The notes under the pieces are model-generated. The model was not told the DNA's origin. It made no database searches and was given only the letters and a program-made list of their open reading frames with translations. A program made the position numbers and the translations under genes. Of a DNA stretch of 34,124 nucleotides, positions 10,014-10,534 are shown piece after piece. The DNA lies in contig CAYPKQ010000002.1 in the NCBI GenBank assembly GCA_964411355.1, positions 1 to 34,124 of the forward strand, given 5' to 3'. The stretch comes from an uncultured Lachnospiraceae bacterium. Its GTDB lineage: Bacteria > Bacillota > Clostridia > Oscillospirales > CAG-272. The first letter of the stretch is position 1. Every line of letters starts with the position of its first letter.

Positions 10014-10045
10014 CAAAAAAACGGGAGGACTTTCGCAGTCCTCCC
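10014..10045 (-). terminator. Rho-independent terminator (minus strand) of the orphan transcription unit
   Basis: The minus strand reads GGGAGGACT-gcgaa-AGTCCTCCC followed by G and TTTTTTT. The 9-bp GC-rich stem lies at 10023-10045 and the T-run corresponds to plus-strand A7 at 10014-10020. Confidence 0.8.
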
Positions 10046-10501
10046 TTATATTCATATATCTTATATCCGACTTATTTGAAAAAATTTCAGATTTCCATTG
10101 GAGTAGCTCCTTATTCAAGATGTTTTGGTAACAATTTTCTTCAGTATAAACCGTGTGTTCATTCGCATTTCACCCATAATCTATATCAAATCATCTTGTG
10201 TTAAAACTCATTATTCGGTTAGCTATTCGACATGAAAATTAATTAGTTCATTGGTTCTTCTCCTTATAATACTGTTCTGAAACAGCATAAACTTCTCGGT
10301 GGATCTTTTTTCATAACATCACTCCTAACCGGGAATATTAATTTCTTTTGGGAAGACTGATTAGTTCATCGGTTATATCTCCTTTTCCGTTTTGATCTTA
10401 GCTTGGGTTCGTGTAAGGCGTCTTAAAATCATAGCTCTACATCCCTCCTTAGCTTTAAGCTGCCTATCGTAGGATCGTTTTTTTGTCTTTCCTTTTTGCA
10501 T
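10046..10501 (-). other. Body of an orphan ~490-nt minus-strand transcript that carries only mini/small ORFs (candidate small-peptide mRNA or ncRNA)
   Basis: The body lies between the consensus promoter (10506-10534) and the terminator (10014-10045). Candidate small ORFs on the minus strand are:
- a possible leaderless ATG at 10501, giving a 42-aa, highly basic peptide (MQKGKTKKRSYDRQLKAKEGCRAMILRRLTRTQAKIKTEKEI)
- AAGGAGG-N11-ATG, giving MILRRLTRTQAKIKTEKEI
- TAGGAG-N7-ATG, giving MKKDPPRSLCCFRTVL
- three AAGGAG-N8/9-ATG mini-ORFs (MN*, MN*, MEI*). Confidence 0.45.
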
Positions 10502-10505
10502 CTTT

Positions 10506-10534
10506 ATTATAACAGATTTTGTAGGATGTGTCAA
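10506..10534 (-). promoter_or_regulatory. Consensus sigma-A-type promoter (minus strand)
   Basis: The minus strand reads TTGACA (10534-10529), a 17-nt spacer, then TATAAT (10511-10506). Both hexamers match the consensus perfectly. Confidence 0.75.

Follow-up and report, generated by a model that had tools for sequence, protein, structure and literature searches.

What can a stretch of DNA encode that carries a complete set of transcription signals and only very short reading frames between them? The question is raised by an 850-nt gap in the window, by which we mean the whole stretch of 34,124 nt analyzed here (contig CAYPKQ010000002.1 of an uncultured Lachnospiraceae bacterium, assembly GCA_964411355.1). 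The gap is occupied by a predicted transcription unit on the minus strand, divergent from a regulator gene, in which each of three short open reading frames (ORFs) is followed by a minigene, i.e., a Shine-Dalgarno (SD) sequence, a start codon and typically one or two further codons before a stop. We propose, with a probability of about 0.5, that the region holds a working RNA gene of ~490 nt with a transcript of its own, and that its product would be a regulator-gated, ribosome-engaging regulatory RNA with three frames each coupled to a minigene.

Promoter, terminator and extent of the unit

The promoter (10506-10534, minus strand) consists of TTGACA, a 17-nt spacer and a TG-extended TATAAT, with 12 of 12 matches to the consensus, and it was the top-scoring site in a scan of 4 kb. 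The intrinsic terminator (10015-10045, minus strand) has a GC-rich stem of 9 bp and, in the scan, a 5-nt loop (GCGAA), followed by G and T7; the hairpin GGGAGGACTGCGAAAGTCCTCCC is located at 10045-10023 and the T7 tract at 10021-10015. The predicted RNA extends from ~10499 to ~10015 on the minus strand, which corresponds to ~485-490 nt. A preliminary description of the region had reported TTGACA-17-TATAAT at 10534-10506, a GC-rich hairpin with T7 and no ORF longer than 42 codons between them. All three were recovered, with the TG extension as an addition to the first, and the longest frame inside the transcript is the one of 42 codons; a mechanically listed ORF of 67 amino acids begins upstream of the -35 box. 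The 42-codon frame had been suggested to encode a leaderless peptide, which the relatives described below rule out: the ATG located 5 nt past the -10 box is GTG in seven of eight of them, and the frame is disrupted in all eight by stops or frameshifts.

Relatives were found by searches with the regulator, in four GTDB genomes (uncultured Clostridia/Eubacteriales, two of them titled sheep rectum and roe deer colon) and in about ten protein clusters at 90% identity. The whole unit was observed upstream of the regulator at nine distinct loci (the window, L001, L002, L004, L005, L006, L007, L014 and L016), and another locus, L003, holds only its first 200 nt. In the nine full loci and L003, the unit is always adjacent and divergent to the regulator. 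Nucleotide homology between the loci runs from the unit terminator (window position 10017) to the regulator stop (11819), and the genes on either side change from one locus to another. Since the homology spans exactly these two elements and the flanks differ, we regard the regulator and the unit as a two-part cassette. There is one copy of the unit per locus, and an nhmmer profile gave no second copy in the window or the other loci.

The -35 box, the -10 box, the TGn extension and the 17-nt spacing are invariant at all ten loci, the window and L003 included. The terminator stem and its U-run are kept at nine loci; L007 and L014 have a compensatory change from G-C to A-U, and in L016 the stem differs in sequence but not in shape. 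Among the helices of the unit, the terminator alone shows a compensatory pair. Two stretches are variable: the A-rich 5' leader between the promoter and the first SD sequence, and an A/U-rich spacer before the terminator (10046-10086, minus strand), which is 41 nt long in the window, ~40-140 nt in the relatives, and not conserved. Because the promoter and terminator are conserved, the terminator stem carries a compensatory change and no conserved gene follows downstream, the comparison supports an autonomous transcription unit.

The cassette has a narrow range. When the regulator alignment was used for a profile search, no additional close relatives came up. At locus L017, whose regulator is 52% identical, the unit is absent and another gene lies directly upstream, and the three examined regulator homologues of 31-35% identity are found in glycan-utilization contexts without the unit. 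No Rfam match was obtained for the whole window at gathering scores; a permissive E-value scan of 9850-10750 gave matches at chance level, the best of which (E = 0.11) was outside the unit. Searches for tRNA and transfer-messenger RNA found none. Exact-pattern scans with two conserved motifs gave 0 matches in JGI metagenome contigs and 0 in IMG/VR, and blastn at a distant setting gave no match of the unit to plasmid and phage records.

Three short frames, each followed by a minigene

The conserved plan of the unit consists of three short frames of 14-23 (A), 13-16 (B) and 15-16 codons (C), each with an SD-N8/9-AUG, one or two codons and a stop ~13-19 nt further on. All are on the minus strand. 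SD-A (AAGGAGGG, 10450-10443) precedes ORF-A (MILRRLTRTQAKIKTEKEI, 10373-10432), which has 19 codons in the window and a conserved core of 14 codons, MI-x-[RKG]-x-[LI]-[TA]-[RQ]-[TA]-x-x-[KR]-I-[KE]. Its stop varies among the loci, being either a TAA after codon 14 or, by read-through, a stop inside or at the next ribosome site. Minigene A (10361-10384) reads AAGGAG-N9-ATG AAC TAA, or Met-Asn-stop, with ATGAACTAA at 10369-10361; it is present at all ten loci, as ATG AAC TAA in seven and ATG AAC TGA in three.

SD-B (TAGGAGTGAT, 10327-10318) is followed by ORF-B (MKKDPPRSLCCFRTVL, 10314-10264), which has 16 codons and a TAA stop that overlaps the next SD sequence. Among the loci, ORF-B has 13-16 codons and always closes with AGA ACA plus zero to two codons, its stop being in or beside the next SD sequence. 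In minigene B (10243-10265), AAGGAG-N8-ATG AAC TAA places a second ATGAACTAA at 10251-10243. Ten copies of it were found in nine loci, with ATG AAC followed by TAA, TGA, TAC TGA or AAT TGA. ORF-C (MNTRFILKKIVTKTS, 10162-10115) has 15 codons, the SD sequence GGGTGA (SD-C, 10175-10170), an end of the form [AT]-K-T-S and a TGA stop. Minigene C (10087-10112) consists of its own SD sequence (SD-c), AAGGAGCTACTCC, and ATG GAA ATC TGA (Met-Glu-Ile-stop), with ATGGAAATCTGA at 10098-10087. Its GGAGCTA..CCAATGGAAA is invariant, and the length of the minigene is 3 codons at six loci and 6-7 at three others.

ORF-A and ORF-B had both been noted before as SD-preceded small ORFs (MILRRLTRTQAKIKTEKEI and MKKDPPRSLCCFRTVL), and the third frame, ORF-C, had been overlooked. 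The three AAGGAG-N8/9-ATG sites with only one or two sense codons, as already described (ATGAACTAA twice and ATGGAAATCTGA once), are the only sites of this kind on both strands of the window; locally shuffled sequence gave ~1.3 such sites per whole window. Three of them within 300 nt on one strand are not a chance occurrence. The two ATGAACTAA units do sit in a direct repeat, which was measured as 23 nt with 83% identity instead of the ~27 nt previously given.

At L016 (~3050-3300, minus strand), SD-B, a short frame ending in AGA ACA TAA, an SD sequence and an ATG AAC stop are doubled in tandem. The two modules encode different peptides, MKIILLMLSTAGART and MKILSRLTLSRMRT. Because the module of ORF-B and minigene B is doubled there, the repeating unit is evidently a short frame followed by an SD-minigene. 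The similarity of the second module's peptide, MKILSRLTLSRMRT, to ORF-A (MI-L-R-x-L-T) suggests duplication as the origin of the three modules.

A further observation was made at L003 (~1505-1620, minus strand). There the unit is conserved up to codon 4 of ORF-B and then continues into a hydrophobic peptide of 38 amino acids with a Lys-rich tail, MKKNGFIPGSIIVALVSYLCIKGMKAVDKKLEEDKKKS, whose gene has its own terminator and is followed by unrelated small genes. The arrangement is probably a rearrangement or an insertion. Its appearance is that of a small membrane toxin placed under the leader of the unit; in Pfam the peptide scored below every gathering score, the best being YrhC (E = 0.024; 15 bits, where 27 are required).

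Constraint on the RNA and on its translation

The fourfold-degenerate sites of the regulator gene are saturated, with 27-50% identity even for the closest pair. Since the unit retains 60-91% nucleotide identity among the loci while those sites are saturated, it is under purifying selection and is not debris. For the pair of window and L001, identity is 91% in the unit and 84% in the regulator gene. It had been considered that the region might be the decayed 5' ends of a lost operon, and this candidate was rejected: the unit is better conserved than the regulator gene, neutral sites are saturated, and the homologous regions of the relatives were found to contain no intact long gene. No conserved ORF of greater length was found in the unit on either strand across the loci.

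The signals for translation are kept in detail. Six SD-AUG pairs with a spacing of 7-11 nt were observed in every locus, and the minigene AUG is invariant in 30 of 30 copies. Stops are exchanged between TAA and TGA from locus to locus, and copies of minigene B without the TAA gain an in-frame TGA one codon further on. The start of ORF-C is changed from AUG to UUG in L016, and a 3-nt indel also occurs in ORF-C. The distance from the ORF-B ATG to (T/C)AAGGAG is 45, 48 or 51 nt, every value being divisible by 3, and the length of ORF-C is 45 or 48 nt; indels outside the frames are of arbitrary length.

The frames themselves do not evolve as protein-coding sequence would be expected to from the regulator gene. 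Codon positions 1, 2 and 3 are invariant in 5, 6 and 5 of 13 codons in ORF-A, in 10, 7 and 7 of 12 in ORF-B and in 8, 6 and 7 of 11 in ORF-C, whereas the invariant columns of the regulator amount to 60, 76 and 6% at the three positions. Thus the third positions are invariant in 19 of the 36 codons of ORFs A-C (53%) and in 6% of those of the regulator. Peptide B is unrelated in L014 and L016 save for its ends (M-K...R-T), and several positions of peptide A vary freely (R/F/S/C, Q/P/R/H). It had been left open earlier whether conservation follows the peptide frames or the RNA; frames and signals are both kept, with no relaxation of third positions. Because the signals and frames persist while invariance is as high at the third codon positions as at the other two, the pattern indicates that selection preserves the nucleotide sequence and the act of translating the short frames, and not the peptides.

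Predicted RNA structure and conserved non-coding blocks

RNAalifold, applied to alignments of 9 and 10 sequences, predicted a hairpin H1 at 10445-10405 (minus strand; GGG.UGUAA.GC / GC.UUACA..CCC) with 97-100% of the cells paired. H1 would cover part of SD-A and place the start codon of ORF-A in the loop. A second predicted hairpin, HC (10115-10198, minus strand), has the arms CAAGATGATTTG at 10198-10187 and CAAAACATCTTG at 10127-10116, with 11 bp that are invariant in nine loci; the arms were also picked up as an inverted repeat in the window sequence. It would enclose SD-C and ORF-C, its 3' arm being the last four codons of ORF-C. SD-c is located inside a predicted self-hairpin of 4 bp. In all sequences, H1, HC and the SD-c hairpin were 94-100% paired.

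An untranslated spacer (10329-10355, minus strand) carries two C-rich motifs, CUUCCC (10355-10350) and UUCCCGG (10335-10329), which are conserved in the alignments and resemble anti-SD or seed sequences. Both are unpaired in the consensus fold, save for a 2-bp CC/GG contact of the second motif with SD-B. One motif lies 8-10 nt past the stop of minigene A and the other a few nucleotides ahead of SD-B; since the motifs adjoin these sites, ribosomes at the minigene A stop or at SD-B would cover them. A long-range pairing of CUUCCC with the SD sequence of minigene B, proposed by RNAalifold with two covarying sequences, was judged too weak to claim. Another conserved block, (A/G)ATAGC(A/T)AACCGAA(T/A)A at 10212-10227 (minus strand), was identified in the alignment of nine loci and has no SD-preceded frame over it.

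The divergent regulator and candidate operators

The regulator gene (10740-11819, plus strand) encodes a LacI/CcpA-type effector core (residues ~40-272) and a C-terminal LuxR/GerE helix-turn-helix (HTH; ~298-364), according to matches in Pfam, NCBIfam and PDB; residue numbers refer to the 366-aa translation from a TTG start that was scanned. The Pfam domains are Peripla_BP_3 and GerE, and an N-terminal LacI HTH is absent, in agreement with the preliminary description of a LacI-sensor/LuxR-HTH gene divergent from the unit. Because of the alignment with the relatives and the position of the SD sequence, the start is likely the ATG at 10740 (MDSLKLY...) and not the mechanically listed TTG at 10719.

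A candidate operator was found in the alignment of the intergenic region of ten loci. It is an inverted repeat, TTTGTG(AA)-N-(T)xCACAAA, at 10559-10577, centered ~69 nt upstream of the start of the unit. A CACAA-N3/4-TTTGT element with the same half-site is conserved within the promoter spacer (10512-10522). The spacing of the repeat is one base shorter than that of a Rex or CRP-type site. We infer that the TTTGTG/CACAAA repeats are candidate operators for the LuxR-type HTH. That the promoter is a perfect consensus suggests that it is repressed and that a ligand relieves the repression.

On the other strand, a promoter-like site that points toward the regulator (10478-10510, TTGAC[CT]-17-TATTAT) overlaps the -10 box of the unit. 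It matches the consensus at 10 of 12 positions in L004, L005 and L007 and at 9 of 12 in the window, and could be a second, distal promoter of the regulator. In the leader of the regulator gene (10696-10720, plus strand), the hairpin GCGGCTGATATCAGCCG followed by T7 starts ~5 nt after the predicted transcription start. The hairpin is conserved, with stems in L014 and L016 that are different yet complementary, and its appearance is that of an early terminator, an attenuator or a 5' stabilizer of the regulator gene.

Proposed function and alternatives

In the proposed mechanism, the regulator would sense a small, probably sugar-like ligand and gate an otherwise constitutive consensus promoter through the TTTGTG/CACAAA repeats. 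The RNA would be engaged by ribosomes which, after finishing frame A, B or C, restart at a strong SD-AUG ~13-19 nt further on and stop at once. The predicted H1, HC and SD-c stems would hide SD-A with its start codon, ORF-C and SD-c, respectively, until translation opens them. Judging from the substitution patterns, the RNA sequence and the act of translation are what selection keeps, not the peptides. The output would most likely be a trans-acting, translation-gated regulatory RNA, for which the two unpaired UUCCC motifs are candidate anti-SD seeds; this is the weakest step of the model. A ribosome-engaging regulatory RNA was one of the three candidates originally put forward, and it is the best fit among them, with SD sequences, AUGs, stops and frames kept and no relaxation of third positions.

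Several results weigh against this proposal. Some substitutions look synonymous or conservative, namely CGG/AGG (Arg) in ORF-C and CGA/CGC/CGT (Arg) and TTA/CTT (Leu) in ORF-A, and peptide A or C may have a role. The arms of the helices show almost no variation, and covariation therefore speaks neither for nor against H1, HC and the SD-c hairpin; the fold of the RNA as a whole has no unusual stability (z = -1.0). A search for duplexes between the unit and the translation start of the regulator found no conserved pairing and nothing better than with shuffled sequence. The family is also small, with about ten lineages of uncultured gut Clostridia, and the statistics therefore rest on few independent events.

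The alternative that survives best, although we consider it unlikely, is a small-peptide operon, in which the basic peptides A, B and C of 14-16 residues would be the products (a signal, a toxin or an enzyme modulator) and the minigenes would serve coupling or protection of the mRNA. This candidate, which was also among the original ones, is weakened and not lost. Conserved starts, stops and frames with in-frame indels are what it would predict, and the Arg and Leu codon changes in ORF-A and ORF-C and the conserved C-terminal R-T and K-T-S agree with it as well. However, the invariant third positions (19 of 36 codons, compared with 6% for the regulator gene), the free variation at several positions of peptide A and the wholly different peptide B of L014 and L016 do not fit peptides as the selected products. 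There is also no export signal, no gene for modification or transport, and the flanks vary.

In a further alternative, which is improbable in our judgment, the RNA acts through its minigenes: SD-AUG-AAC-stop units would recycle ribosomes, shed fMet-Asn-tRNA, tie up ribosomes or tRNA-Asn and slow growth when the regulator releases the promoter. Toxicity of minigenes is reported to be greatest with two codons, a strong SD sequence, a UAA stop and ribosomes that reinitiate while still on the mRNA (PMC8708949, PMC2490762), and these features are present and conserved in the unit. The unit also has a consensus promoter, a regulator of its own and, in each RNA, two to three minigenes with AAC. Yet in the literature consulted the toxicity is described mostly in Pth-deficient cells (PMC2490762), and the natural minigene of axe-txe was not toxic (PMC8708949). 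Minigene C, moreover, does not have the AAC codon and extends to 6-7 codons at three loci, and the nucleotide conservation in ORFs A-C, in the block at 10212-10227 and in the C-rich motifs is left unexplained. There is an equally small chance that the RNA addresses the translation machinery as such. In this reading a ligand-gated consensus promoter would drive a transcript whose three micro-frames pass ribosomes on to three minigenes of the form SD-AUG-(Asn or Glu-Ile)-stop, and induction would park or recycle ribosomes and shed fMet-Asn-tRNA as a reversible brake on translation, under control of the regulator, or as a signal of Asn-codon starvation, which would be the first evolved use of the minigene effect of the lambda bar type.

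We give little credence to a sponge RNA, whose GGAG motifs would bind a CsrA-like protein or a C-rich small RNA (sRNA) instead of ribosomes. Five to six conserved GGA/GGAG motifs do occur on one RNA, the constraint at the nucleotide level reaches into the spacers (CC[AG]ATG[AG]AA), and a sugar-type regulator adjoins, comparable to what is described for the CcpA-controlled RosA (PMC8216469). A sponge would need neither an AUG at the canonical spacing of 8-9 nt, invariant in 30 of 30 minigene copies, nor stops kept through TAA/TGA swaps, nor preserved frames. Compared with sponges of the CsrB/RsmZ type, the motif density is low (~6 GGAG in 490 nt), SD-c is in a stem and not in a loop, and the other motifs are unstructured; the conservation of AUG, stop and frame points to ribosomes, and a sponge of the CsrB kind was rejected.

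It is very improbable that the unit is an mRNA of the type I toxin kind, whose conserved 5' part would act as a leader that controls translation of a small toxic peptide encoded where ORF-B lies. This reading would take L003 as the model, where the promoter, ORF-A, minigene A and SD-B drive the hydrophobic 38-aa peptide with its Lys-rich tail and its own terminator. L003 is the sole exception, however, and by parsimony a derived one, since the more distant L004, L014 and L016 have the full unit; its peptide is below all Pfam gathering scores. The ORFs of the window are basic and 15-19 aa long, with ORF-B, of 16 aa, not hydrophobic, and no antisense promoter with at least 10 of 12 matches was found to be conserved inside the ORF region across the loci. 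A type I toxin-antitoxin system was therefore rejected.

Readings of the unit as a leader or attenuator that acts in cis, or as what is left of a lost operon, are hardly tenable: SD-preceded, leader-like ORFs and hairpins do resemble erm, cat and trp leaders, but the last ORF is separated from the terminator by the non-conserved spacer of ~40-140 nt, the genes further downstream change from one locus to the next, are convergent or possess promoters of their own, and the purifying selection on the unit is strong.

Genomic surroundings

To the left of the unit in the window, a microcompartment-type cluster of the fucose/rhamnose kind (154-9905, plus strand) encodes a class II aldolase, an HbpS-like protein, a zinc-dependent alcohol dehydrogenase, an RnfC/Nuo51-like flavoprotein, a bacterial microcompartment shell protein, a DeoR regulator, an aldehyde dehydrogenase and PduL. 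Its genes end at 9869 and it has its own terminator at 9876-9905; synteny of the cluster was found with L002 only. To the right, the divergent regulator is followed by a convergent GH92 gene. Elsewhere in the window the genes are those of an ordinary chromosome (TrmD, UvrC, pyruvate kinase).

A box of the form [AC]ATGGG(A/G) was observed 8-30 nt past the U-run of the terminator in six of nine loci (window, at 10001-10007 on the minus strand, L001, L002, L005, L007 and L014), and L006 carries CATAGGGAA at the equivalent place. Against a background of ~0.02 per 45 nt, the post hoc P is ~1e-8. The box is complementary to the UUCCC motifs and could be a mark of the cassette end or a read-through element. 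Between the terminators of the unit and of the PduL gene, the window also contains an inverted repeat of 20 nt (9928-10010; 75% complementary, 43 nt apart), which includes the ATGGGG box and appears specific to this genome.

At L007 (~3165-3200, minus strand), a perfect 14-bp palindrome with TTGTTGA-N4-TCAACAA, similar to clostridial Rex sites, overlaps the promoter of the cluster downstream of the unit, which comprises Fe-alcohol dehydrogenase, aldehyde dehydrogenase and glycyl-radical genes. This palindrome belongs to the neighboring genes and not to the unit.

Comparison with known systems

Two-codon minigenes are known from lambda bar, from the LEE1 leader of enterohemorrhagic Escherichia coli and from mg2 of axe-txe (PMC8708949, PMC2490762). 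The minigenes of the unit share with them an SD sequence at functional spacing, an AUG, one sense codon and a UAA or UGA stop, and the strong SD sequence favors repeated reinitiation. They also have the properties that are reported to promote recycling of ribosomes and drop-off of peptidyl-tRNA (PMC8708949, PMC2490762). Whereas the minigenes of LEE1 and axe-txe are single, located in the leader of a downstream gene and active in cis, the unit has three that are kept across the lineages, each after a short frame. A cis-regulated gene below the unit was sought, and no conserved downstream gene was found at the loci; minigene C precedes only the spacer and the terminator.

As in the erm, cat and trp leader-peptide attenuators, short SD-preceded frames may overlap hairpins that would hide the next ribosome site: the predicted H1 overlaps ORF-A and the predicted HC overlaps ORF-C. 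Unlike in those systems, there is no regulated structural gene, and the terminator is distant, seemingly unconditional and located past non-conserved sequence; no alternative anti-terminator pairing to it was found.

RsaE and RoxS are sRNAs of Firmicutes with C-rich seeds. RosA is described as a CcpA-controlled sponge for RoxS (PMC8216469), and for SR1 both functions, including that of the peptide SR1P, are reported to be conserved (PMC3526287). The unit would resemble SR1/SR1P and RsaE/RoxS in its presumed link to a sugar-type regulator, in small frames on a regulatory RNA and in unpaired UCCC-type motifs that could mask an SD sequence. It differs from them by the lack of homology and by a much longer RNA with several frames, and also from SR1 in particular, whose peptide is described as conserved (PMC3526287).

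Two other kinds of system were compared and rejected. In contrast to the RRNPP and Rgg-SHP signaling pairs, the regulator combines a LacI-type core with a GerE HTH and is not a TPR protein, and the peptides, of 13-23 aa, are basic and without a signal sequence. As for known anti-phage defense, the regulator protein had no match to the PADLOC defense-system models, and the unit is unlike phage and plasmid records.

SgrR-SgrS, GcvA-GcvB and OxyR-OxyS are divergent pairs of a transcription factor and an sRNA, and SgrS carries the small frame SgrT. As in SgrR-SgrS, a short RNA gene of the cassette lies back to back with the gene of a predicted ligand sensor, a regulator that has a domain of the solute-binding type; the RNA gene has its own promoter and intrinsic terminator and carries small frames, as SgrS does SgrT. 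The differences are that the cassette is found in Clostridia and not in enterobacteria, that no sequence or Rfam similarity exists, that ~490 nt with three frames and three minigenes stand against one ORF, and that the peptides of the unit show no selection of the protein type, their amino acids not being conserved as such. Judged by its sequence, the unit is most likely a variant of translated or dual-function regulatory RNAs and minigenes with a narrow phylogenetic range.

If it is transcribed and translated as predicted, it represents an undescribed RNA family with no Rfam counterpart, in which start and stop signals and frames are selected and the peptides are ignored. Translation as a regulatory act would then be split unusually cleanly from translation for a product. 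The family would also offer a natural test bed for evolved functions of two-codon minigenes, for termination-reinitiation outside operons and for the gating of base-pairing by ribosome occupancy in dual-function RNAs. The unusual design of the regulator, a LacI-type core with a C-terminal LuxR-type HTH and a single obvious target, makes studies of its ligand and operator tractable.

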